A stretch of DNA of 43,767 nucleotides from Candidatus Uhrbacteria bacterium (GCA_043808565.1 JAZDEQ010000016.1:1-43767), one strand, 5' to 3'; shown: positions 22,095 through 34,258, counted from the first letter of the stretch. The notes: generated from the sequence alone by a model not told the origin. Translations and numbers: made by a program.

Positions 22095-24020
22095 TTACCA
22101 ATTCACTACACCGTTTTTTATTTCTTCTTGCAAACTTTCATCGCTCCAACTTGCCAATCTCTCCAAAGCCGCAGAATATTCTTCTTCAGTGGCTGGTCGA
22201 GGAAAATAACCGTCAATTTTGGCTGGTAAAAGTTCGACTGATTTCTCTTCTCCGTTCCAACCAAGACGGACTACCAGGGATTCGTTTTCATCTTCACCAA
22301 ATTGGTCAAAAATAAAATTTCCCAGTGAGTAAAAAATCAATCCGTCTTTATATTTTTCAATACCTTCCAAAACGTGCGGATGGTGACCGATAATTACGTC
22401 AGCTCCGGCGTCGATGGCGGCGTGGGCTAATTCGACTTGCTGGCTGGTTGGTTTATGTTGGTACTCATTACCCCAATGAAAAGAAACCAAAATCAGGTCA
22501 GCTTGATTTTTTAAAGGTGAAATAATTTCCGTCAAAGTCGTGGTAGCCATTTTCCAAATTGTCGTATCAAAAGCTAAAAAAGCCAGACGCTGCCCAGCGG
22601 CTTCGGCAAAAACTGGTGCCCCGTCGTTTCCATAACCACCAACCGGCTCAACTCCACCTGCCTTCAGATAAATCAACGATTCGTCCCAAGCCGCCCGACC
22701 GTAATCGCCGATATGATTATTGGTCACGGAAACATGGGTCATGCCAAAATAATTTAAAACATCAATCCGCGCTGGGTCGGCTTTAAAACGAATTTCTTTG
22801 CTACTTTCCATGGTCGAAGTAGACAAAACACTTTCAAGGTTAGCAAAAACCAAATCACTGTTTGCCAGTGATGGCGCAATTTTAGAAAAAGCCTCATCAA
22901 CTGAAACTCTTTTTAATTTACCGCCAACCGCTCGCGACAGCATTACATCGCCAACCAGAGAAATCATAAATGGTTTCTCGCGGGCTGGCGCAAAAAAAAT
23001 CATATAACTTGTCCCCGGTTCATTGGTTTCTCCAGTTACCTCTCCACTGTGACTGTGCCAAATCAATTCATTGTCCCAATTATTTTTTTCTGACCACAAA
23101 AGAAAACTATCTAAAACAAATGGCGAGTCTAAGAAAGTTTCATTTAAAACATCGATTTTGCCATAATCACGAAAGTTCATTAACTGCCGCACAGTCTCAT
23201 CGTTTTTAAAAGCGGCTTCAGTGGCCAAACCATGAGAAAAATCCAGACTAAAAATTATCAAAGCGTCAGCTGGTAAATTTTGTTCCAAAGTCGAAACCAA
23301 AGCTCGAGCTTCTTTTTCTCCAGCCTTTGATTTGGCAATAATTGGAACGATGGGCACATCTGGGAAGGTCTTGGCAATAAAAGGAATGAAAGTACCAACT
23401 GAATGTTCATTGTCAAAAGACGACGGTTCGTCCTTTACAATTCCGCTAGAAACCAAAGTCGAAACTATTTCGTCAGAAGTTTTCACTATACCAAAATCAG
23501 TTTGATAATCGTTTGAAGTTGTTTGAATTAGAGCGTCGCCTTGATTTTCATGAGCCGCACCAACAACAACAATGACCGATGGCTCGGGATTATTTTCTAT
23601 TATTTTTTGCCAATGTTCAGCGAGTTGTGAGGCCAGGAGAGTGTGGTGAGGGAGGATGGCGGATTTAATTTCCTCGCCGTTCATGCCCTCACTTCCCGAC
23701 TTCTCGTCAACCGCCTTACACCTCACCCCCTGCCCCTCTCCTTCGTCCGCCGTCGCCAGGGCTTTGGCGGACAAGCAAAGAGAAGTGGGAATCATATCGG
23801 CGGCGGCGGTGTAAATTTCTCGGAGGCCGCTGATTTGGGAAATGTCGATTAGAGGTTCGGGGTCTAACCCCCTCTGTATCTCCCCCTTGTTAAAACCTGG
23901 AAGGGGGAGATGAAAAATATTGATTATGGCTAAAATAAAAATAATCAAAAAACCAAAAAACAAACACCACGTTTTTTTGGTTTTAATTTTTTGAAGAAAA
24001 TTACATTTTAGATTGTCCAT
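22095..24020 (-). CDS. Membrane-anchored AmmeMemoRadiSam protein B (MEMO1-like) + CapA/PGA_cap metallophosphatase fusion
   Basis: ILPHH, EHS, SLDFSH (MEMO); GDVML, NLES, NNHIGDYG, HWGNEY, GHHPHV, YSLGNF (CapA). Start placed at ATG 24020. Confidence 0.88.
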   Translation of the reverse strand: MDNLKCNFLQKIKTKKTWCLFFGFLIIFILAIINIFHLPLPGFNKGEIQRGLDPEPLIDISQISGLREIYTAAADMIPTSLCLSAKALATADEGEGQGVRCKAVDEKSGSEGMNGEEIKSAILPHHTLLASQLAEHWQKIIENNPEPSVIVVVGAAHENQGDALIQTTSNDYQTDFGIVKTSDEIVSTLVSSGIVKDEPSSFDNEHSVGTFIPFIAKTFPDVPIVPIIAKSKAGEKEARALVSTLEQNLPADALIIFSLDFSHGLATEAAFKNDETVRQLMNFRDYGKIDVLNETFLDSPFVLDSFLLWSEKNNWDNELIWHSHSGEVTGETNEPGTSYMIFFAPAREKPFMISLVGDVMLSRAVGGKLKRVSVDEAFSKIAPSLANSDLVFANLESVLSTSTMESSKEIRFKADPARIDVLNYFGMTHVSVTNNHIGDYGRAAWDESLIYLKAGGVEPVGGYGNDGAPVFAEAAGQRLAFLAFDTTIWKMATTTLTEIISPLKNQADLILVSFHWGNEYQHKPTSQQVELAHAAIDAGADVIIGHHPHVLEGIEKYKDGLIFYSLGNFIFDQFGEDENESLVVRLGWNGEEKSVELLPAKIDGYFPRPATEEEYSAALERLASWSDESLQEEIKNGVVNW

Positions 24021-24037
24021 AAAATCGGAAGTTACTG

Positions 24038-24078
24038 GATTGCCACGTCGTTCCGAGGCGTCACTCCTCGCAATGACG
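24038..24078. repeat. Half copy of family C element
   Basis: GATTGCCACGTCG…CTCCTCGCAATGACG, as in 29599-29670. Confidence 0.85.
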
Positions 24079-24142
24079 GAGTGGTCGTGGATTGGCCGAA
24101 GAAAAAAACGAAAGAAGAGGGTCAAATCAGACCCTCTTCAGA

Positions 24143-27100
24143 TTATTCATTAATTGTCATCGCTGTTTCAATTGAATGATTGTTATCGTTCGGATCACGA
24201 ACCGAACGAATGTAGACTGGTTCGGCCATATAAGTACCTGGTGTTACAACACGAGCATAATAAGTCAGAGTGTAAGGCTCGCACCAATCACGACCAAACT
24301 CTTCGCTGTTGCTGACAAAGAAAGTCACGCGTTGGCTTTCAGCGACCGAAGGATAATTCACACACTTTTCTTCCCACAACCAATTTCCAACCGGGGTCAC
24401 CAGAGACAAACCAGACGGCAGAACATCAGTAATTTCAAAAGTCTCAAAAACATTTTTATCTGGCTCAGGAATTACTTCTTCTTTGAGTGGAACATCCCAA
24501 AGCGAATCACCTTGAGTTGTCTGTTCCGGACCAGTGTTATCAATAATCAAGTTTGGATTTTTAACTACCGGAACTTTAAATTTCACTTCGACCTTAACCA
24601 AATCGCCAGCCTTAATCGCTTGACCGGGCTGACCGCCAACAACTGAATAGCTTCGAGCTAAACCAAGTTTCTCATTAACCACCGCATTGTCATCAACCAA
24701 CGGCGAGTCAAAACGACTAACCGCCACCACACTGCCCTTTTGAACTTCAGGATTAAACGCAACTAATTCATCTGGCGATAACGCCAGGGTTACCGTTTCA
24801 TTATTTTCCAAAGTCAATTCCCGACGCTCACCCTCAAGCGTATAGGCAACTTTTACCTCACTGTCTTTCAAAGACTTAATCGCTTCTTTAATAAACAAAG
24901 CTTGATCAAGCACCAAAAGCGTACTGCCTTGGTATTGATTAGTCACATAATCATGCAAAGCGTCACGATCACTTTCACGTAAAGCCGCGGCCAAAATGGC
25001 CATTAAAGCCGTTTGTTCACCTTGGGTTTCAATATCATCGGCCGGCAAATAGGCATAACCAAAATCTTTATTCACGCCCTTAATCAAGTCTCGATAAATC
25101 GCTCGTGCTCCTTCATCAGCGCCAGAAAAATGCAAAGCTAAAGACAAGAATAATTTTTCATTTGTCGACAAATCATTTTCTGCGGTTAATCGCTGGACTT
25201 CAGATAAAACTGGTTCGCCCAGAGCGGCCATGGCGGCATAGGCCTTAATGGCTTCTTCACGGCCAACTTCCATGCCACTTTGTCGACTGTAGTAAAGCAT
25301 GTTACCAAAATAATTTTTAAGGCTATCTTGATCAAAAGGTGTACCGCCAGCCAGAGCTACCTTGACCGAAGTATCAAAATCCGTGTCACCGTAAGGCAAA
25401 AGTCTGACGCCCTGATCTTGATAAGATGAAACCGAAAATTCTGAATCAGAATTTTGTTCACCAAATTTTTCATTCAAAATTTTTGTGGCCACGGCTTGGG
25501 TCATAATTTCGTCAGCTCGGTTGCCAAAACTGCCAGCCAAATAACTTAACTCCGAATAATATTTTCCAGCTCCACCATCAATAAAAGTCACTTTGGTTAA
25601 ACCATTGGCCGAACCGGAAATTTTTTCTTGACCACCAAGTATTACACTGGAAACTACTGGCTTCACCAAATACGAAGGCAGAATTTCAATCGACCGAGTG
25701 ATCGTATCGGTTAAATTACCAGACGAACCAGTAATCGTTATCTCGTGTTGGCCTTCAGAAAGTTTTGGTAAGGTTAAGCCAACAGTTTTGGCGACCGTGG
25801 AAATTTCTTTTTTCTCAATATCAGCATCAGGAATCGAAATGGTATATTCGACCGGATCATTCAAACCAACGTTAACTCCAGCACTACGGATGAGAACCGT
25901 TGGTTGATCATCAACTAAATAATTTTCCCGCATAACTGGCACAACAAAGAATGGCATGGAAGCCTCAAGATTTATTTTAATGTCACCGGCCATTTTTTCT
26001 TGAGAATTTAAGGCTTGGGCCGTGACTCGCCAGGAAGTAATATTATCAGGCAGTTTGAAAGAATAATTCGCCCGACCATTTTTGTCGGTTTCAATAGTGA
26101 CAAAATCAGCAGTGTCTTTAAACAAAGCTCGTCCACGTTCGCCGCCACCACCACCTTCGGCCAGACTGGTGGTCGCAAAGTCTTTAATGTTTTCACTAAC
26201 CTTGGTCATCAAAACTCCAGAACTAACATTTTGATAAAGATCGCTCAACGGATGAACATCTTCACCCACCAAGGCATAAAAAGCTTCGTCAACAACATTT
26301 AAATTGACTTCAGCGACTACTGGCTGATCGTCTTTATTAGTCACGACAACGTTTAAACTAACATCTTCACCAGGTCGATAAGTTTCCTTGTCAGCCTTAA
26401 CTTCAACTTTTAATTCTTTTTCTGAATTGTCATACCAAACGTAAAGACCGTTAGCCGAACCTGATCCACCGCCATACCGATCATTAACTTGAGCATAAGC
26501 TTGACCATCAAAATACACTCCATAAACTTCAAGATTAGGAACCAAAGCTTGGTCAAAATTAAAAGAATAAGCACTACTTTTCATCACAGAAATCTGTTGA
26601 ATGCCTTGACGGGCTTGGAAGTAAAGAAAATTACCATTTTCTCCTAAAGAAAAGGGGGCGTCTTCTTTAAAAACCTGTAAATGAACCGGGTCGTTTATTT
26701 TATAACCGGGAAAGCCTGGGTTATTTTCTGCTTCTAAATTTTTCAATTGTAATGATTTGTCGTCTTTAGCTTCAATACCCCGATTCCAAAGATAGGCATC
26801 TAATTTATCGGTCTTTCCCGCTTCATCACTGGCTCGTAAAATAACTCGATAACTAGCTTCAGGGTTGGCTGAAAAAGTATAAAATGCTTCGCCGTTATTA
26901 TCAGTAATTAAAGAAAAATCTTTAATTTTATTTTCTATTCGATCGTATTGATATTGAGTGACAGTTTCCTTACGAATAAAATCATATGTTGTGCCTGATT
27001 CTGTTTTAACATAAGTAATTTCTCGAAGCTCGCCATTAATCAATTGACTCGGCTTAACAATGGGAGCAAAAATTTCGGCATCATAAGAATCAATTGCTTG

Positions 27101-29440
27101 AACATTTCTGGTGGTTACTTTAATTGTCCCAACCCCATCTTTGATTCCGGATGCGTCCCAATCTTCCTGAAGATAAACCTTAGGGCCAAAAACCATTAGG
27201 TTTGTGCTAGCCTGAATATTAGCCTCTTCGGCTCGGGCGGGATAAACATTTAACCAATAAGAATTTGGGTAACGGTAATCGATTGCCGAATAAGAAATCA
27301 TCACATTACCTCGGGCATTACCCGCCGCATCAAGAGTTAGTTCTTGATTGCCAGCTCCAGTTTCCACCACCACTGGTAAACCGTTAACCGGAGTGCCGTC
27401 GAAAAACTCTCCGTGAATCATATAGCCGACACTCTCGCCGGCAAAGACGGCGTCTTTGTCTGTTTCAATTGAAAGTGAAAAAGCTGGTTTAACATATTCA
27501 GAAACTGAAACACCTCGTGATCTAATGATTTCGTCATCAACTTTTACTTGAACATCATAATAACCAGCTGGCACAGCCTCGAGAGATAATTCGCCCTCAA
27601 AAGTTCCTTGATCAGAAACCTCAATCACTGTTTCGTCAAAAATCAAACGATTTTGATCCGAAAAATCACAACTAAATGGCGAGCACCAACCATTTTCACC
27701 AATAATCACCCGAACGGTTTTTGGTTTAGTGCCATTTGCACGATTTTCTACATAACCCCAAAGTTTAATAGTATCGTTTGGTTTATACATTGGTCGATCG
27801 GTATAAAGATATGACCAATTTTGTTCGTATGGTTGAACCAGTGGTGTGCTTGTCTGATTTTCAAAATTACGAAAATCATAATTACCATCTAGTGGTAAAA
27901 TAATCGCTTCAGAACCAATTCGAACTTCCAATAAATCACGTTGAGAATATTCTTCAGAAGATAAATCGGCCGGTGTATTTAAAGAAGCTAAACCATTTTC
28001 ATCAGTTGTTTTTAAAGTCTCATCAAAATCAATAAATTTAACACTGGTGCCGGCCAAAGGACCATGAGTTTCTGCACTATTCACCCAAACCAAGGTCTGA
28101 TTGATGGCTTTGGCAGCATAAGCTGTGACCTGACTCGACTCGATAAGCGCAAAATGTTTTTGTCCGTCGTAAGTAAAAACCGCGACATAATAACCTCGAG
28201 GTAGTGGGGCTGGGAACAAAAGATAATCACGATATTCGCTTTGAACACGACTGGCTTCAAAAGAGGCTGTCACCGGCATTTTCGCTAAATCAACCACCCC
28301 TTCGGCTGAAGTATAGGCTGTCCAATCAGCATCACGAGTTTTTTTATAGGCAACTAAATATTGTTGATAGTCAGAAGTCTCGGCCGCGGAAATAAATTGA
28401 TGAACTTCAACTTTAACCGGCGGATCTGGTTGGCCATCATTGCGCCAAATAGAATAATTTACCGCCACCGTGTCATTAGGTGTAGTAATAATATATTTGT
28501 CATCGAGCCAAAAAGAAAAGCCGGGGTTCGTATCGCCTTGATTGGTTTCAAAAGTAAAAGTGTAATCATTGCCCAAAGTTTCATCACTCCCTTTTAAGCC
28601 AAGCGCGCCAGATAAAGTGGCTGTATAAACGGTTTTGGTTTTTAATTTTTCCTCAGGCACAAAAACAAAAGTTTTACGAAACTGTTCTACATGACCTTTG
28701 ACTGCCGGCAAAATCGTAAAAGCTTTTTCGAAATCTTTTAAATTAATGTTTTCGTAATTAAAACTTATCTCAATGCCAGTTTCAATTGGCACTTCGCCTT
28801 GATGATTGCCTGGTAAAGTTCCAACGATACGAAAAGGACTCTTAACTTGAAAAGCCCAATTATATGGACGCTCAACCGTTTCTCCGGTTAGTGAAGTGGT
28901 CTCAGAGTTTAAAGAAAAAGTTACAACTTTAGCCACGGGTAAAGTTTCGTTAAAAGCAATTCGTACTTTATTAGCCGAAACTTGTTGCAGATCGTAATCA
29001 ACCCCAGTGTTGGTGACTAGATTTTTTTGAACAAAATTTGTGTCGATTTTATCTTTACTTTCTAAAAGAAAAGCAGAATTATTTTCCACGCCAAGCGAAT
29101 CAGCCGCTTCGGCAACTAAAGTAAAATTATCCTGGGCATAAACGGTTTTAATGCCAAAAAACGGTTGGAAAATTGTGGTGGTAATAACAGCGACCACCAG
29201 AACAGTTAAGCCAAAAGCGGCCCATTTGGCACCAAGTCTTTCCTTATCGAAAAAAGGCAAAGACCAACGAAATGTCTTAGACATAGAAACGGCCTGCCGG
29301 GCGGCTTGTAAGCGGGCAAAAAGCGCCTCTTTAAAGCCAGGCCGCGGCATAATATTTACAGATTTAAGGTGACGAGAAAAAACCTCGTCTAATTCTGTAA
29401 ACGAACCGTCGGTTTTTTTATTACGATTAAAAGGAAACAT
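24143..29440 (-). CDS. Membrane-anchored alpha-2-macroglobulin-family protein with N-terminal Ig-like (Big_5-like) domains; no thioester motif
   Basis: YLYTDRPMYKP (MG2), EYVKP, YRPGE..VVDEA, FKDTA.F..LPDNITSWRVTA (A2M), DVLPSGL, YYARVVTPG.Y.AEP; no CxEQ anywhere. Confidence 0.9.
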   Translation of the reverse strand: MFPFNRNKKTDGSFTELDEVFSRHLKSVNIMPRPGFKEALFARLQAARQAVSMSKTFRWSLPFFDKERLGAKWAAFGLTVLVVAVITTTIFQPFFGIKTVYAQDNFTLVAEAADSLGVENNSAFLLESKDKIDTNFVQKNLVTNTGVDYDLQQVSANKVRIAFNETLPVAKVVTFSLNSETTSLTGETVERPYNWAFQVKSPFRIVGTLPGNHQGEVPIETGIEISFNYENINLKDFEKAFTILPAVKGHVEQFRKTFVFVPEEKLKTKTVYTATLSGALGLKGSDETLGNDYTFTFETNQGDTNPGFSFWLDDKYIITTPNDTVAVNYSIWRNDGQPDPPVKVEVHQFISAAETSDYQQYLVAYKKTRDADWTAYTSAEGVVDLAKMPVTASFEASRVQSEYRDYLLFPAPLPRGYYVAVFTYDGQKHFALIESSQVTAYAAKAINQTLVWVNSAETHGPLAGTSVKFIDFDETLKTTDENGLASLNTPADLSSEEYSQRDLLEVRIGSEAIILPLDGNYDFRNFENQTSTPLVQPYEQNWSYLYTDRPMYKPNDTIKLWGYVENRANGTKPKTVRVIIGENGWCSPFSCDFSDQNRLIFDETVIEVSDQGTFEGELSLEAVPAGYYDVQVKVDDEIIRSRGVSVSEYVKPAFSLSIETDKDAVFAGESVGYMIHGEFFDGTPVNGLPVVVETGAGNQELTLDAAGNARGNVMISYSAIDYRYPNSYWLNVYPARAEEANIQASTNLMVFGPKVYLQEDWDASGIKDGVGTIKVTTRNVQAIDSYDAEIFAPIVKPSQLINGELREITYVKTESGTTYDFIRKETVTQYQYDRIENKIKDFSLITDNNGEAFYTFSANPEASYRVILRASDEAGKTDKLDAYLWNRGIEAKDDKSLQLKNLEAENNPGFPGYKINDPVHLQVFKEDAPFSLGENGNFLYFQARQGIQQISVMKSSAYSFNFDQALVPNLEVYGVYFDGQAYAQVNDRYGGGSGSANGLYVWYDNSEKELKVEVKADKETYRPGEDVSLNVVVTNKDDQPVVAEVNLNVVDEAFYALVGEDVHPLSDLYQNVSSGVLMTKVSENIKDFATTSLAEGGGGGERGRALFKDTADFVTIETDKNGRANYSFKLPDNITSWRVTAQALNSQEKMAGDIKINLEASMPFFVVPVMRENYLVDDQPTVLIRSAGVNVGLNDPVEYTISIPDADIEKKEISTVAKTVGLTLPKLSEGQHEITITGSSGNLTDTITRSIEILPSYLVKPVVSSVILGGQEKISGSANGLTKVTFIDGGAGKYYSELSYLAGSFGNRADEIMTQAVATKILNEKFGEQNSDSEFSVSSYQDQGVRLLPYGDTDFDTSVKVALAGGTPFDQDSLKNYFGNMLYYSRQSGMEVGREEAIKAYAAMAALGEPVLSEVQRLTAENDLSTNEKLFLSLALHFSGADEGARAIYRDLIKGVNKDFGYAYLPADDIETQGEQTALMAILAAALRESDRDALHDYVTNQYQGSTLLVLDQALFIKEAIKSLKDSEVKVAYTLEGERRELTLENNETVTLALSPDELVAFNPEVQKGSVVAVSRFDSPLVDDNAVVNEKLGLARSYSVVGGQPGQAIKAGDLVKVEVKFKVPVVKNPNLIIDNTGPEQTTQGDSLWDVPLKEEVIPEPDKNVFETFEITDVLPSGLSLVTPVGNWLWEEKCVNYPSVAESQRVTFFVSNSEEFGRDWCEPYTLTYYARVVTPGTYMAEPVYIRSVRDPNDNNHSIETAMTINE

Positions 29441-29442
29441 AT

Positions 29443-29483
29443 GTTACGAATTACGAATTTTTCCGAAATCACGAATCAACGAA
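29443..29483. repeat. Degenerate single arm of family A
   Basis: GTTACGAATTACGAA… starts 2 nt from the A2M start codon. Confidence 0.7.
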
Positions 29484-29530
29484 TTATTATGAATTTATTT
29501 TTTAAACTTAGACGGCGGTTCTCTGCCCGC

Positions 29531-29670
29531 CGTCATTGCGAGGAGCTCTGAGTTCGTAAGGCGACGCGGCAATCTAGTAATATCCAGACGCGGTTATTAG
29601 ATTGCCACGTCGCTCCACCTTCGCTAAAGCTACGGCGGACACGTCGGCGGCCTCGCTCCTCGCAATGACG
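29531..29670. repeat. Complete family C palindromic element with nested mini-hairpin
   Basis: 16-bp perfect TIR CGTCATTGCGAGGAGC; inner IR GCGACGCGGCAATCTA/TAGATTGCCACGTCGC. Confidence 0.9.
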
Positions 29671-29687
29671 AATAGTCAATAACGTTT

Positions 29688-30275
29688 TTATTTAAAACTC
29701 ATCAATTTATCACTCGCTAACTTTTCGCATTTACTTAAAGCCCGATGTAAAATTACGCCGGCATTGTTGGGGGTACACTTCAGGGTTTGGGCGATTTCTT
29801 CATACGAAGCTTCGGCATAATATTTCATGGTAATAACCAAACGTTCGCGCTCGGGTAAATTTTCTAAAACTCTTTCTAATTCTTCGCCAAGAATATTTTG
29901 ATCGGTTGACTCAATCACATTTTGCCGACTATCAGCCGGATCAAAAGATTTTTCTTCATCATCTAAAGAAGAAGCCTGGTGTTTCATTCGATAATGATCA
30001 GTAATCGTGTTGGTGGCAATACGATAAAGCCAGGCTGAAAATGATGGTCGCAAAACAAAGGTTTGGCGTTTAGCAAAAGCCTTTAAAAAAACTTCGGAAA
30101 CAATATCTTCGGCCGTGTGTTGATGGATAACACGACGAATGACAAAAGTATAAATCTTTTGAAAGTAACGTTCGTAAAGTTGACTAAAAGCCTGATCATC
30201 GCCCTTACTCATCCGAACCGCTAAATCATCATCATTTTCGGTTTCGCTTGCTGTTTCGTTTCGTAAATTTCCCAA
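29688..30275 (-). CDS. ECF (sigma-70 group 4) RNA polymerase sigma factor; start uncertain
   Basis: AFSQLYERY, AEDIVSEVF, FSAWLYRIATN, LPERERLVI, SYEEIA...LHRA motifs. TTG 30275 chosen over the ORF start at 30437. Confidence 0.92.
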   Translation of the reverse strand: MGNLRNETASETENDDDLAVRMSKGDDQAFSQLYERYFQKIYTFVIRRVIHQHTAEDIVSEVFLKAFAKRQTFVLRPSFSAWLYRIATNTITDHYRMKHQASSLDDEEKSFDPADSRQNVIESTDQNILGEELERVLENLPERERLVITMKYYAEASYEEIAQTLKCTPNNAGVILHRALSKCEKLASDKLMSFK

Positions 30276-30486
30276 TAATTCCGTAGCAAAAAAACAAAAA
30301 CGCCGCCAGACCTCTATTAGAGATAACGGTTTAATGATTGAATTATTACTGGATGTAGAAATCGTAGAAAGCGTAGAAAACGTAGATTTTTTGTTAAACA
30401 CGAAGAGTAAGCCATCATTCGCTCTTGTGTTAATCATCCTATCAAAAAATGCTTGGACTGGCTAATTATTTTTCTCACTCGTTAAC

Positions 30487-30597
30487 CCCCTCTCTCTTAT
30501 CTCTCCCCCGGGGAGAGAAGATTAAATTAAGCCCCTTTCCCTGGGGGAGAGGTTGGCCTGCCCGTCCGTAGCCCAGCGAAGGCGGGGTGAGGGGTTG
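30487..30597. repeat. Family D element copy 2 carrying a 30-bp insertion at 30557-30586
   Basis: Aligns to 14358-14438 apart from the insert and about 4 substitutions. Confidence 0.9.
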
Positions 30598-30602
30598 AGA
30601 GC

Positions 30603-32339
30603 CTAATTATTTTTCTCAATAAATTTTAAATAACAGCCATGACAAAAAACCCGACGATTAGGATATTGCTGACAACCAGTGACAGTAATTTCTTTTTGAC
30701 ATTCAGCGCAAGCGCGTTTTTCAAAAACACTTTGTTGACCGCTCATGGCCACTTCGTTTAAACGACGAATAAAGTGAGTATTGGGTGGGGCGATTCGCAG
30801 GGCGCGATAATGATCTAATTCCGGTTTAAGAAAACTAAAAGTCCGCTTGGCTTGTTCATCAAAAATTGGCACACCAATCCAATCATCAGTTAAATCATCA
30901 ATGGAATCAGGAATTTCGCTTCGCTGGCGTGGGGTTGAAGTTAGACGATCGATGCCCGTAGCACTTTCATCATTAGGATCAAAAACTAAACCACCAATTT
31001 TTTCTAATTCAGCCAGTATGGCCCCACAATAAATAACCGCTCCGCCTTCAGGCACATAAGTTGTGGCCAATGAAACCGGTAAATAATGACCGTACTCGCC
31101 CCGATTTAACAACTCCATTTTTATTTCATCCAAATATTTAAAATATTCTTCTTCAGTATATTGCTTATTTAAAATGCAAAACTTTTTATTTTTCAAACCA
31201 ATACAGCCAAAACAATCCTGACAATCAGTACACATTAAACAATATTCGCAATTCTCTAAACGAAAAGAGCGATAGGAAAATTTAGTGCGGCTAGAATTAG
31301 GACATGAGACGCACATGTAAACATCAGTATTATCAATTAAACCCCAACCATAAGCGCAACCCTGAGAATTACCGTACATCCAAGCGCTGTGCCAATTATC
31401 GACCGGGTTATCGGCTGAATCAAAACATTCCGTGCAACGAACAGCATTAGATAAATAATCACCGCTAGATTGTTCGGTATTAACATTAAAATTTTCTGGC
31501 CAAATACCTTGAGACAAAAGTAAATCATCAAACTTTTTTTGCCAAAATTCAGCTTCACTTCGTTTGCCAAGATCAATGGCTGCGAGACGTTTTTCATATT
31601 CATCCTTGGTTAATTGTTCGTTGAAAAACAAGTACTCACCATTTCGTCGATTGGTCGCGCCAAAACAATTTCGGCAATTACGACAATCAAAAAGAAAAGT
31701 CGAATTTAAACAATCGTACGAAGCTCGAACAAACCGACAGCGGTGCAAACGCTGACCGTGCAAGACATTGTGAGATTCAGTAATATTCGAACCAAGCCAA
31801 ACCACTGATGAATCTGAGATACCAAAACCGCCGGCCGAAAAAAATGACCGTTCTGACTTGCAAGCAAAAGTAAAATAACTATTGCGATCACCAAAAGAAA
31901 ATAAAGTAATGGAATTTTCCGGCTCAACTCGATTAAAAGTTGCCAAAAGCGGCACGCGGAGCTCAAGCGCTCGCAGTTGTTCAAAAAATGGCCGAGCCAA
32001 ATCCAAATTTTCAAAAGTATTAGAAAAATCTTTAGCGTGCCATTCTTTATCTGGCAAAACTCGCACTCCCGAAGCTGGATGATGAAAACTTAACACCGGC
32101 TTGCCAGTTTCAAAATGTTTATTCCACCAAAACTGAAAGCCACAATCATAATAAGCCATTTGTTTCCAAATAGTATTGGGTGAAAATTTAATCGGTGGTA
32201 CGTTAAATTTTTTGTAGATGTCGATTTCAGTTTGTTGCAACAGCCACTTTTCACCCATGAGTTCACAGGTCCGCTCACCGGATTTTAATTCAGTGAGGAT
32301 TTTGGCGACGGCCGCGTCGTAGTTGGGGGTTTTAAACAT
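30603..32339 (-). CDS. Cys-rich repeat hypothetical protein, paralog 1 (family common in CPR genomes)
   Basis: CxxC-rich blocks; CFGCIGLKNKKFCILNKQYTEEEY; GEYG motif. Confidence 0.85.
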   Translation of the reverse strand: MFKTPNYDAAVAKILTELKSGERTCELMGEKWLLQQTEIDIYKKFNVPPIKFSPNTIWKQMAYYDCGFQFWWNKHFETGKPVLSFHHPASGVRVLPDKEWHAKDFSNTFENLDLARPFFEQLRALELRVPLLATFNRVEPENSITLFSFGDRNSYFTFACKSERSFFSAGGFGISDSSVVWLGSNITESHNVLHGQRLHRCRFVRASYDCLNSTFLFDCRNCRNCFGATNRRNGEYLFFNEQLTKDEYEKRLAAIDLGKRSEAEFWQKKFDDLLLSQGIWPENFNVNTEQSSGDYLSNAVRCTECFDSADNPVDNWHSAWMYGNSQGCAYGWGLIDNTDVYMCVSCPNSSRTKFSYRSFRLENCEYCLMCTDCQDCFGCIGLKNKKFCILNKQYTEEEYFKYLDEIKMELLNRGEYGHYLPVSLATTYVPEGGAVIYCGAILAELEKIGGLVFDPNDESATGIDRLTSTPRQRSEIPDSIDDLTDDWIGVPIFDEQAKRTFSFLKPELDHYRALRIAPPNTHFIRRLNEVAMSGQQSVFEKRACAECQKEITVTGCQQYPNRRVFCHGCYLKFIEKNN

Positions 32340-32509: not shown

Positions 32510-34246
32510 TCAATTATTTTCTTCTAAGTATTTAAGATAACACGCTTGGCAATAAATTTTTCTTGTGGAATAAGTTTTGTTTTTAGCAACAAAAACATTT
32601 TTTTGACACTTACTACATTCCGATGTTTCAAAAGCCCAAGAATTGGCGCTTAAAAAAAGTTTTCTTACTCGACTAATAAAATGTGTAGTGGGCGGAGCGA
32701 TGCCTTCTTGTTTGTAAAAATCAATTTCTGGTTTTAAAAAAGTAAAACGGCGTTTAAATACCAGGTCATCAATCGCCACCCCAACCCAATCTTCTGATTT
32801 TAAGTCATTTATTTTGTCTGGAATTTCGTCTGGCTGTCTAACTTTGGTAGCTAAAGACAGTTGCTGACCAATAGCTCCATCTTGAGTTGGATCAAATATG
32901 TTAGCGTTAATTTTCTCACCAGTTTCAGTATCGGCCAGACAAAAGAAAGCGGCTCCTGATTCGGGAAAGTAAGATTGGGAAAACGAGGCGGGAAAATATT
33001 CTCCGTATTCACCGGCTTGTAACATTTGACATTTAATAGAATCAACAAGCGACCAATATTCTTCTTCTGTATACTGTTGATTTAAAATACAAAAACTTTT
33101 GCGTTTTAAACCAACACAACCAAAACAGTATTCACAGTCTTCACAATTCAAACAATATTCACAAGCGTGACACTGGCTACCCCAACCGACAAATTTACAA
33201 TCATTTGATTTACCGCACGGACAGCAAGAATAACAATTTTGTAAACCAGAACCACCGGTAAAAGCCGAATTTTCGGTGGGTAAAGATGAAAAAGCCGAAT
33301 AATAATTATTATTAGATTGAACCATTTGATAACAAAAACGGCTGTCTTTGCAATCTCTTAAATATTCACCAAGACAGTTTTGGCAGCCTTCATTAAAATT
33401 TTCTGGCCAAACACCTTGAGAAAAAATTAGTTCAGTAAAACGTTTATTTATTTGTTCGACAGTTTCGCGAGAGCTCAAATTAATTTTAGCTAGTTCAACT
33501 TCATAAGCTTCTTGGGTCAATTGTTGATTGAAGAAAATGTATTTCTTATTTCTCTGGTTAATTGCACCAAAACAAAATTCACAGTTTTGACAATCAAAAA
33601 GAAAAGCCGAATTAAGACAGTCAAAACATTCCCGAATGTATCGACAATTATGAATTCTCTGAGAGTGAACAATATTAAAAGAAGAAGTTACTTTTGAAGA
33701 GACGAAAAATTCGGCCGAATTTTCAATATCAAAAGACGCTGAACCAAAAAAACTTCCTTTGCTTCGACTGGCGCCAACAAAATAACTGTTTTGATCACCA
33801 TAAGAAGAGAAAACTAAAGAATTTTCTGGTTTTATGTAATTGCGAGTTGGCGCCAAAGGTATTTGAAGTTGAAGTTCTCTGAATTGTTTTAAAAAATTAA
33901 TCGTTTTGTTGTAATCTTTATTAATGGTGGAAAAATCACTTGCCGCGTATTCTTCATCGGTAATAACTTTTAATTTAGTGGCCGGGTGAACAACTGATAA
34001 AAGCGGGGCGTCAGTAATCGCATGTTTGTGCCACCAAAATTGATAAGCAACGGTAAAACTGGAAAGAATAGATAATCTTGCCCGGGGTGAATACTTAGAC
34101 GGCGGCACATTAAATTTTTTGTACCAACTGATTTCTTCTCCGTCCACGTTCCACTTCTCGTTTGTAAGAGCACAAATTTGCTCGCCGGGTTTTAATTCGT
34201 CGAGGATTTTTTTGATAGCAATGTCGTAATTCGGAGTTCGAGACAT
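32510..34246 (-). CDS. Cys-rich repeat hypothetical protein, paralog 2
   Basis: Colinear with paralog 1 (TPNYD, YKKFNVPP, QFWW, WPENFN, CFGC.GL..K.FCILN.QYTEEEY). Confidence 0.85.
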   Translation of the reverse strand: MSRTPNYDIAIKKILDELKPGEQICALTNEKWNVDGEEISWYKKFNVPPSKYSPRARLSILSSFTVAYQFWWHKHAITDAPLLSVVHPATKLKVITDEEYAASDFSTINKDYNKTINFLKQFRELQLQIPLAPTRNYIKPENSLVFSSYGDQNSYFVGASRSKGSFFGSASFDIENSAEFFVSSKVTSSFNIVHSQRIHNCRYIRECFDCLNSAFLFDCQNCEFCFGAINQRNKKYIFFNQQLTQEAYEVELAKINLSSRETVEQINKRFTELIFSQGVWPENFNEGCQNCLGEYLRDCKDSRFCYQMVQSNNNYYSAFSSLPTENSAFTGGSGLQNCYSCCPCGKSNDCKFVGWGSQCHACEYCLNCEDCEYCFGCVGLKRKSFCILNQQYTEEEYWSLVDSIKCQMLQAGEYGEYFPASFSQSYFPESGAAFFCLADTETGEKINANIFDPTQDGAIGQQLSLATKVRQPDEIPDKINDLKSEDWVGVAIDDLVFKRRFTFLKPEIDFYKQEGIAPPTTHFISRVRKLFLSANSWAFETSECSKCQKNVFVAKNKTYSTRKIYCQACYLKYLEENN

Positions 34247-34258
34247 AATCAAAATCGT

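Follow-up and report, generated by a model that had tools for sequence, protein, structure and literature searches.

The 43,767-nucleotide stretch of Candidatus Uhrbacteria DNA analysed here (GCA_043808565.1 JAZDEQ010000016.1:1-43767; hereafter the window) encodes an extracytoplasmic function (ECF) sigma factor and, 3' of it on the same strand, a large membrane protein related to alpha-2-macroglobulin (A2M). The two proteins probably form a cognate ECF sigma/anti-sigma pair, with the A2M-like protein itself as the anti-sigma factor. This likelihood refers to the pairing and not to the identity of the signal. An initial annotation of the DNA had suggested that an A2M scaffold may serve as the extracellular part of an anti-sigma factor. 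The suggestion was supported by a model of the complex, by the conservation of the gene pair and by a real cytoplasmic domain in the A2M-like protein. Of four checks proposed with it, these three were passed, whereas a comparison with known anti-sigma domains was negative; none of the three circumstances named as refuting it applied. The elements that it had described were present where it had placed them (Table 1).

The next co-oriented open reading frame (ORF) 5' of the A2M-like gene is the sigma gene. The initial annotation was thus right in placing a sigma gene upstream in the same orientation and wrong in letting the two genes adjoin directly, as they are separated by 247 bp that include a dispersed repeat. 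The longest sigma frame, P0002, contained the Pfam domains Sigma70_r2 (residues 87-151, 2.1e-15) and Sigma70_r4_2 (residues 185-237, 2.3e-13), with no match to sigma region 3 or region 1 at E <= 0.01. Regions 2 and 4 alone are the layout of ECF (group IV) sigma-70 factors, which are about 170-200 residues long. Against the NCBIfam model TIGR02937 (sigma70-ECF), the ORF scored 107.7 bits with a cut-off of 42.9. Translation most likely starts at TTG 30275 or ATG 30212, because a promoter-like motif falls inside the long ORF, and TTG 30275 is a more plausible start than ATG 30437. The first 54 codons of the longest ORF (30276..30437, minus strand) contain this motif, lack a counterpart in the sigma alignment and are probably untranslated. 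The genome comprises 1.17 Mb in 84 contigs and was rated 100% complete. It held only one A2M-like gene and only two Sigma70_r2 matches, namely the window sigma and a 456-aa frame on another contig (C76), which is presumably the housekeeping sigma factor. The window sigma is the only ECF-type or alternative sigma factor of the genome. The closest named homologues of the A2M-like protein P0001 belong to Candidatus Uhrbacteria and Patescibacteria.

The N-terminus of the A2M-like protein has the topology of a single-pass membrane protein with a cytoplasmic domain. About 72 residues precede one transmembrane helix, no lipobox was found in the N-terminus and no Cys occurs within residues 1-100. This agrees with the initial annotation, which had described about 70 residues ahead of one helix and no lipoprotein signal. 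The peptide ELDEVFSRHLKSVNIMPRPGFKEALFARLQAA corresponds to residues 16-47. A homologue search with P0001 yielded 69 homologues at E <= 0.001. Homologues from the candidate phyla radiation (CPR) shared the conserved N-terminus, followed by the transmembrane helix and then by the motif [VA]-[YF]-A-Q-D-N-F. The N-terminus was conserved across 25 aligned sequences with the consensus ..RNE....SL......F.R.A.S....PRPGFKEAL..RL.EAR. in which F36 and L40 were at least 90% conserved. In relatives, the ATG start codon of the A2M gene abuts or overlaps the sigma stop codon and therefore the start does not lie near the transmembrane helix. A start close to the helix, which would have left the protein without a cytoplasmic domain, is contradicted by this arrangement and by the conservation of the N-terminus.

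Structure prediction, the check that had been proposed for this domain, was passed. The sigma chain (P0002 residues 71-249, alignment A3 with 24 rows) and A2M residues 1-70 (alignment A2 with 25 rows) were predicted as a complex with ipSAE values of 0.71, 0.72 and 0.69, compared with 0.00 for the best of three controls; the calibration of this score is only rough owing to the custom alignments, and resemblance to solved sigma/anti-sigma complexes may account for part of its height. Of 157 solved complexes, 116 reach the ipSAE mark, as do 2 of 215 mismatched pairs. Agreement between runs extended to at least 81% of contacts, with a pLDDT of at least 63 for the partner. The confident interface comprised A2M residues 13-48 together with residues 11-52 (region 2) and 109-179 (region 4) of the sigma chain, which are residues 81-122 and 179-249 in P0002 numbering. 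The tightest modelled contacts were made by F36, K37, L40 and F41, and F36 and L40 are the pair conserved to at least 90%. The modelled placement between regions 2 and 4 is the geometry of an anti-sigma factor. Binding between these regions with occlusion of the core-binding surfaces, as in class I anti-sigma domains (ASD), was seen in the model only. According to this model, about 50 conserved N-terminal residues, with two predicted helices (13-48) including F36 and L40, would lodge between regions 2 and 4 of the sigma factor and hold it at the membrane.

The gene pair was conserved and its presence followed the N-terminal domain, as expected if the neighbourhood noted initially has a function. 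Related loci were collected by scanning one genome per species. The scan matched 351 stretches, 340 of them relatives; the best 80 were kept, giving 67 loci. Sigma genes were detected in two ways, by tblastn and by a hidden Markov model (HMM) built from 28 phmmer hits. Since 15 of the 67 loci were cut at the A2M 5' end, 52 complete loci remained. A long N-terminus with at least 45 residues before the transmembrane helix was present in 28 of them, and 26 of these 28 had an intact same-strand ECF sigma ORF ending at the A2M start. The other 24 complete loci, from Clostridia, Saccharibacteria, Paceibacterota and others, encoded a short N-terminus of the signal-anchor type. None of these 24 had an upstream sigma gene, with 1.5-6 kb of upstream DNA available in each. 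Four loci were classed as short by hand. In L032, the longest frame puts the transmembrane helix at residue 84, while an internal Met gives a signal-peptide-like start; L033, L047 and L048 lay below the hydrophobicity threshold and look like signal peptides. The loci with the gene pair span Patescibacteria and Bacillota. Two Bacillota loci, L054 and L058, had the long N-terminus and a sigma gene that was confirmed with Pfam. The distance between the sigma and A2M genes in relatives was -41 to +129 bp, a spacing too small to hold a separate anti-sigma gene.

A quick maximum-likelihood tree was calculated from the C-terminal 596 residues of 42 sequences. The Uhrbacteria clade was uniformly sigma-coupled. 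Outside Uhrbacteria, sigma-coupled and sigma-less forms were interleaved, with four changes of the no-sigma label, at least three of them forced by starred branches; some joins in this tree involve long branches. The interleaving indicates that the N-terminal domain and the sigma gene were gained or lost together, on several occasions. Several contigs (L006, L007, L010, L016, L022, L023, L028, L039, L060 and L063) are titled 'uncultured Gammaproteobacteria bacterium' in their records. The A2M sequences of these contigs fell into Uhrbacteria/Patescibacteria clades, and the taxonomy of the records looks wrong.

Independent support for the anti-sigma reading came from a clade of Chloroflexota. 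Two distant homologues of P0001, P0067 and P0061, matched the anti-sigma domain family zf-HC2 with 22.8 and 19.6 bits, respectively, the cut-off being 22.2 bits. With P0067 as the query, 152 proteins were retrieved; the best 120 were taken and 119 of them examined. Sources name some of these relatives as Candidatus Limnocylindrales or Chloroflexota. An Hx3Cx2C motif was present in the first 90 residues of 63 of the 119 A2M homologues. Pfam detected zf-HC2 at E <= 0.01 in 21 of 25 scanned proteins, two of them above the cut-off. The gene context was studied at 60 metagenome loci, where 15 had an HC2 N-terminus, 13 of them with enough upstream DNA. With the CPR-derived sigma HMM at E <= 0.001, 8 of these 13 loci were found to have an ECF sigma ORF whose end coincides exactly with the A2M start, and Pfam confirmed these ORFs. 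At the 32 complete loci lacking HC2, no upstream sigma gene was found. Pfam recognised Sigma70_r2 in each of the 12 upstream ORFs tested. These zf-HC2::A2M fusions (among them P0067, P0090 and P0115), some of which are named 'Ig-like domain-containing protein' by their sources, share with the window protein the A2M subfamily (Big_5, MG2, BRD, A2M and bMG10), the topology and, at 8 of 13 loci, the upstream ECF sigma gene. They differ in their N-terminus, a zinc-finger anti-sigma domain (ZAS) of about 95 residues, whereas the module of the window protein is shorter and looks unrelated. P0128 from Chloroflexota was the only one of the 119 screened proteins with a CxEQ string anywhere in its sequence.

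Besides the two reservations about the complex score, a number of observations weigh against the pairing or against the route by which it would signal. Residues 1-70 and 1-110 of the A2M-like protein had no Pfam match at E <= 10, and a profile search of the PDB with the N-terminus gave chance-level matches only. An hhalign comparison of the CPR-type N-termini with the Chloroflexota ZAS N-termini showed no significant similarity (probability 0.8%, E 0.07, 13 columns). Two loci with a long N-terminus lacked an intact sigma gene, L009 with sigma fragments and L039 with a different 70-residue N-terminus. At 5 of the 13 ZAS-type loci, no sigma match was obtained among the upstream ORFs, and at four of these five the closest large ORF is encoded on the other strand. 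Co-transcription of the sigma and A2M genes in the window is uncertain, because the 247-bp gap between them holds a repeat with strong hairpins. Further points of this kind concern the ectodomain, where the conservation of the loop at the bait position is more in keeping with a specific cut or a structural loop than with a broad bait, and the membrane-proximal motif V-Y-A|Q, which lies 11 residues from the hydrophobic core and 15-25 residues from it in several homologues, a long distance for signal peptidase; V-Y-A-Q-D-N-F may be the start of the first folded domain.

The two sigma fragments of L009, a Uhrbacteria locus whose A2M protein has the N-terminal module, were short tblastn matches in different frames (L009:1678-1823) and reflect decay of the sigma gene or else a fault in the assembly.

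Known anti-sigma domains were not recognised in the N-terminus. The proposed HMM comparison was negative with Pfam, PDB profiles and hhalign, and neither the Hx3Cx2C motif nor a profile match of class I anti-sigma domains (ASDI/ZAS, zf-HC2, RskA) was found. There was no zf-HC2 match in this genome and no NCBIfam family for the whole A2M-like protein. The best PDB profile match to the N-terminus, a KAT6B fragment with E 0.0016, was judged to be due to chance. Interpretation of the CPR module as a degenerate ZAS domain was abandoned after the hhalign comparison, as only a similar look of P-x-x-[FL]-[KR]-x-x-[IL] is shared. A Protein Atlas feature search with residues 1-100 listed clusters including zf-HC2, DUF4179, DUF5667 and RsgI_M; the scores were at most 0.80, a value that shuffled proteins reach a third of the time, and the listing serves only as a lead. 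When a profile of the N-terminus was searched against 1.84 billion representative proteins, 23 matches were obtained at E <= 0.001. All 23 were A2M-like proteins of about 1700 aa or truncated pieces continuing into the same ectodomain; the proposed sigma-binding module is therefore private to this A2M family. Class II anti-sigma domains are short and bind sigma with a helical peptide that lacks a zinc site. The short core of about residues 13-48 is presumably compatible with such CnrY/NepR-like domains. In the model, the N-terminus works like an anti-sigma domain without being a detectable member of a known one. Given the absence of significant hhalign similarity, one ectodomain family appears to be joined to at least two different-looking sigma-binding modules.

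The position of the N-terminus outside known anti-sigma families, together with Protein Atlas scores within reach of shuffled proteins, would also fit a protein without any anti-sigma function. The A2M-like protein would then be a membrane-anchored surface protease inhibitor and a target of the sigma factor, the cytoplasmic tail would have another role or none, and the adjacency of the genes could reflect regulation only. We consider this highly improbable. The sigma gene was present only with the N-terminal domain (26 of 28 loci against none of 24), the association recurred with a classical ZAS domain in a second phylum (8 of 13 against none of 32), the complex model passed where the controls gave 0.00, and the short intergenic distances left no other candidate anti-sigma gene beside the sigma gene.

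Table 1. Position of the sigma gene, the A2M-like gene with its domains, and further elements of the window
Feature	Position	Strand	Remarks
ECF sigma gene	29688..30275	minus	TTG start 30275; alternative ATG 30212; longest frame (P0002) to 30437
A2M-like gene (P0001)	24143..29440	minus	1765-aa ORF
Cytoplasmic N-terminal domain, A2M-like residues 1-72	29225..29440	minus	Proposed sigma-binding (anti-sigma) module
N-terminal core, residues 13-48	29297..29404	minus	Interface in the complex model
Single transmembrane helix, about residues 73-95	29156..29224	minus	Hydrophobicity scan of homologues and sequence
V-Y-A-Q-D-N-F, residues 100-106	29123..29143	minus	Candidate signal-peptidase-type site-1 cut after A102
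Extracytoplasmic A2M-like body	24143..29122	minus	Pfam, profile, AF2, Foldseek
Big_5, residues 201-299	28544..28840	minus	Pfam, above cut-off
MG2, residues 544-636	27533..27811	minus	Pfam, above cut-off
A2M_BRD, residues 913-1057	26270..26704	minus	Pfam, above cut-off
Bait-position loop AEGGGGGERGR, residues 1094-1104	26129..26161	minus	Between A2M_BRD and A2M
A2M/MG7, residues 1117-1169	25934..26092	minus	Pfam, above cut-off
G-N-R-A-D-E, residues 1306-1311	25508..25525	minus	Expected place of the G-C-x-E-Q thioester
Helical TED-like domain	about 24872..25558	minus	Model residues 126-354
C-terminal MG10-like domain	within 24143..29122	minus	
ECF-type promoter-like motif GTAAT-N16-CGTT	30325..30349	minus	5' of the sigma gene, inside the long frame
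Dispersed hairpin repeat	29495..29690	.	Inserted between the sigma and A2M genes
Memo + PGA_cap (CapA-like) fusion gene	22095..24125	minus	Pfam: PGA_cap 3e-62, Memo 9.6e-17

The extracytoplasmic part of the protein had the domain order of the A2M superfamily, with MG, bait-region, CUB/TED-like and C-terminal MG domains. In addition to the Pfam domains in Table 1, a match to bMG3 was found below the cut-off. A phmmer search of PDB sequences with P0001 alone gave no match at E <= 0.001 and a family profile was needed; the profile matched E. coli ECAM/YfhM (5a42) with E 4.7e-26, and the match covered MG domains, bait segment and MG10. Residues 1170-1765 were modelled with AlphaFold2 (AF2) with a mean pLDDT of 87.9 and a pTM of 0.83. 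Foldseek found 5a42 (E 5.3e-22) and 4ziu (TMq 0.58/TMt 0.55), and the E values for 5a42, 4ziu and 4u48 were about 1e-20 to 1e-22. The C-terminal model, which corresponds to ECAM from MG7 to the C-terminus, matched native ECAM and Salmonella A2M with TMq 0.58-0.59 (E 5e-22 to 2.5e-20) and the protease-activated forms with TMq 0.32-0.33, suggesting that the architecture of a protease trap was kept.

The CxEQ thioester is missing. The motif CxEQ was absent from all 70 family proteins checked, P0001 included, which bears out the initial description of an A2M without CxEQ. The peptide at the expected place, YLAGSFGNRADEI, comprises residues 1300-1312 at 25505..25543. In the AF2 model, G-N-R-A-D-E lies in the loop that connects helices one and two of the helical TED-like domain. 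The family consensus at this place is G-[DN..]-R-[AVIL]-D-[EQ], and R-[AVIL]-D-[EQ] appears to replace C-x-E-Q, judged from the alignment and the model. Thioester-less (type II) bacterial A2Ms are known, and MagD is reported to trap a protease after bait cleavage (PMC5764988). For this reason, the missing thioester is not new in itself.

The bait-like segment noted initially, AEGGGGGERGR, was indeed present and aligned to the ECAM segment between MG6/BRD and MG7. It does not behave like a promiscuous bait, as it is among the best conserved stretches of the family. In alignment A1, G1098, G1099 and R1104 were invariant, while A1094, E1095, G1097 and G1100 were conserved to at least 90%. Protease sensing is therefore a matter of interpretation, since the loop at the bait position is conserved and not variable. 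Given the pairing, we consider a proteolytic attack on the A2M body, or a conformational change of it, the most likely trigger, although we hold this view tentatively and at somewhat less than an even chance.

A true anti-sigma factor could instead sense a cue other than a protease, such as the host cell surface, a glycan or damage to its own envelope, with the A2M fold serving only as a large binding scaffold. We regard this as unlikely. In its favour are a conserved rather than hypervariable loop, the family-wide lack of the thioester and a conserved Memo/PGA_cap partner gene that is linked by name to capsule or envelope polymer synthesis; CPR bacteria are, moreover, described as probably host-attached in a genome paper (PMC8080830). 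Yet the C-terminal model resembles native ECAM more than the activated forms, the thioester-less MagD still traps protease after bait cleavage (PMC5764988), and some homologues carry a self-cleaving Hint domain exactly in the bait loop. The insertion of such a domain at this site suggests that cleavage of the chain at the bait loop matters.

The inserted domain has about 130 residues, resembles Hint domains or bacterial inteins and was found inside the glycine run of the loop in 10 of 31 aligned homologues, including P0029, P0030, P0031, P0033, P0035, P0043, P0045 and P0048; two of the ten were checked with Pfam. The insertion follows the pattern ..AEGGG|C....VHN|[QEAD]KG.. and P0029 matched PT-HINT in Pfam with E 2e-14. 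As the residue after HN is not Cys, Ser or Thr, we assume from intein chemistry that the insert should cleave and not splice. Such an insert would amount to a self-cutting bait with a transient thioester in a thioester-less A2M.

Between the transmembrane helix and the A2M-like body, the motif V-Y-A-Q-D-N-F was nearly invariant. In alignment A1, position -1 was A in 30 of 31 sequences, position -3 was V or A in 28 of 31 and F106 was conserved in 30 of 31. Signal peptidase follows a small-x-small rule, with which V-Y-A|Q agrees, and the sequence thus makes V-Y-A|Q-D-N-F a candidate cleavage site. Genes for an S26 signal peptidase and for an M50 site-2 protease are both present in the genome. 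For the anti-sigma factor RsiP, the site-1 cut is reported to be made by signal peptidase (PMC8844934).

These features can also be read as secretion-coupled release, in which the N-terminus and the transmembrane helix act as an over-long cleavable signal peptide that also binds sigma. A constitutive cut at V-Y-A|Q would occur on A2M export, the site-2 protease would clear the remnant, and sigma activity would report the flux of A2M export or the homeostasis of the surface coat instead of an outside protease. Such a mechanism is clearly improbable in our assessment. The near-invariance of [VA]-[YF]-A|Q-D-N-F speaks for it, as do the presence of both the S26 and M50 peptidases, the reported role of signal peptidase in RsiP cleavage (PMC8844934) and the occurrence of the motif in homologues that have only a signal-anchor N-terminus, which suggests a cleaved signal peptide as the ancestral state. 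However, signal peptidase does not usually cut as far from the transmembrane core as the motif lies (11 residues here and 15-25 in several homologues), and the motif may simply form the initial strand of the first folded domain. Moreover, constitutive release combined with autoregulation would lead to runaway expression unless another brake exists.

In the preferred sigma/anti-sigma reading, one transmembrane helix joins the N-terminal module to a thioester-less A2M body of 1670 residues at the cell surface. An event at the ectodomain would permit a cut near the membrane, for which V-Y-A|Q-D-N-F is the candidate site, as in the usual release route of single-pass anti-sigma factors. The M50 site-2 protease would then cut within the membrane and cytoplasmic proteases would destroy the N-terminal piece. 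The released sigma factor probably drives its own promoter (GTAAT-N16-CGTT) and thereby the A2M and Memo/PGA_cap genes. After the trigger, the cell would replace a consumed surface protease trap.

ECF sigma factors commonly recognise their own promoters, of the type AAC ... CGT, in autoregulation. Of 24 orthologous upstream regions, 21, including that of the window, had a motif GTAA[TC]-N16-CGTT at 66-128 nt 5' of the sigma domain; the spacer sequence varied among loci. Genome-wide enrichment was not found, with 13 matches against 21 expected from shuffles. Support for the promoter-like motif is therefore its positional conservation, and the information content of the motif is too low to define a regulon.

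The gap of 247 bp in the window is caused by the dispersed repeat, which is GC-rich, consists of nested inverted repeats and resembles MITE/REP elements (miniature inverted-repeat transposable or repetitive extragenic palindromic). Its arms are 29531-29546/29655-29670 (16 nt, 100%) and 29561-29580/29594-29613 (20 nt, 90%). The repeat had 29 matches in its own genome, the best other copy being C23:9491-9663 with 90% identity over 176 nt. No Rfam family was found above threshold for it in the scanned region 29300-30800, where only sub-threshold matches occurred. A second GC-rich palindrome with 25-nt arms, 80% complementary, lies just 5' of the sigma promoter region (30501..30551). It matched the Rfam family whalefall-1 with 19.3 and 17.5 bits, below the gathering score of 37.

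The Memo/PGA_cap gene was located directly 3' of the A2M gene on the same strand at 40 of the 67 loci by tblastn and was also the partner at sigma-less loci of Clostridia, Saccharibacteria and Paceibacterota. It represents a third kind of conserved partner of bacterial A2Ms, in addition to PBP1c and the mag operon. Two ORFs of about 580 aa are located 5' of the sigma gene (30603..32339 and 32510..34252, minus strand). They had no Pfam family above cut-off and no counterpart in the 67 related loci.

Like RseA, RsiW, RsiV and RsiP, which belong to class I ASD/zf-HC2, the A2M-like protein is encoded directly 3' of an ECF sigma gene, has its N-terminus inside and one transmembrane helix, and in the model clamps a short helical N-terminus between sigma regions 2 and 4; a site-2 protease and a signal peptidase are likewise present in the genome. 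The mechanisms of RseA, RsiW and RsiV serve as background to this comparison. Unlike class I ASD, the window protein has no Hx3Cx2C, shows no Pfam or hhalign similarity to them and has a conserved core of only about 36 residues. Its sigma-binding module is confined to this A2M family, in contrast to those of RseA, RsiW, RsiV and RsiP, and as a sensor it has an A2M-like body of 1670 residues, roughly ten times the size of the usual ectodomains of single-pass anti-sigma factors.

Among bacterial A2Ms, the window protein shares with the type II proteins MagD of P. aeruginosa and YfaS of E. coli the MG, bait-region, TED-like and MG10 domains, the lack of CxEQ and the association with the inner membrane (PMC5764988). 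It differs from type II in being encoded outside a six-gene mag/yfa operon (PMC5764988), next to an ECF sigma gene and a Memo/PGA_cap gene. Pfam scans of four neighbouring ORFs gave Memo/PGA_cap, sigma or no family, and no mag-type operon. Further differences are an extra Big_5 domain, an N-terminal transmembrane anchor preceded by a cytoplasmic domain, and the occurrence of the family in monoderm-like CPR bacteria, Bacillota and Chloroflexota. The best sequence-profile and fold matches were to the type I proteins, E. coli ECAM/YfhM and Salmonella A2M. Unlike type I, the window protein has R-x-D-[EQ] in place of CxEQ and no lipoprotein signal, and the type I partner PBP1c (pbpC) was not found among the neighbours scanned.

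In a CPR genome paper, membrane proteins with A2M domains are treated simply as a defence against host proteases (PMC8080830). The literature search found no paper describing an anti-sigma/A2M fusion, and the published texts that pair 'anti-sigma factor' with 'macroglobulin' concern unrelated topics, judging from their titles and abstracts. The ECF re-classification paper contains none of the terms 'macroglobulin', 'A2M' and 'Parcubacteria' in its main text and part of one supplement. The paper on the coevolution of class I anti-sigma factors has no macroglobulin in its main text, and its supplements might list the Chloroflexota ZAS-A2M proteins. What is new here is the sensor domain of the proposed anti-sigma factor as well as its sigma-binding module.

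A wider reading, which we judge to be somewhat unlikely, is that a widespread and hitherto undescribed class of anti-sigma factors, found in three or more phyla (Patescibacteria, Bacillota and Chloroflexota), consists of A2M-like proteins with at least two kinds of N-terminus, in which a protease trap was converted to transmembrane signalling. The bait-position loop would be cut by a foreign protease or by the inserted Hint domain, flipping the A2M body; the flip would expose the membrane-proximal cut site, and intramembrane proteolysis would free the sigma factor. If true, bacteria would possess an equivalent of complement-like 'attack sensing' that is linked directly to transcription.

The A2M family offers a minimal sigma-binding peptide without similarity to known anti-sigma domains. 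With ZAS-type, CPR-type and sigma-less forms of one ectodomain, it also represents a natural experiment. The role of bacterial A2Ms is poorly understood, and, with a version hard-wired to a sigma factor, the 'use' of such a protein could for the first time be read out directly. CPR bacteria have very few regulators. Because this genome has one alternative sigma factor, the input of that factor is probably central to the sensing of the host or the environment. If the pairing is true, it would represent an undescribed way for bacteria to sense events at the cell surface.

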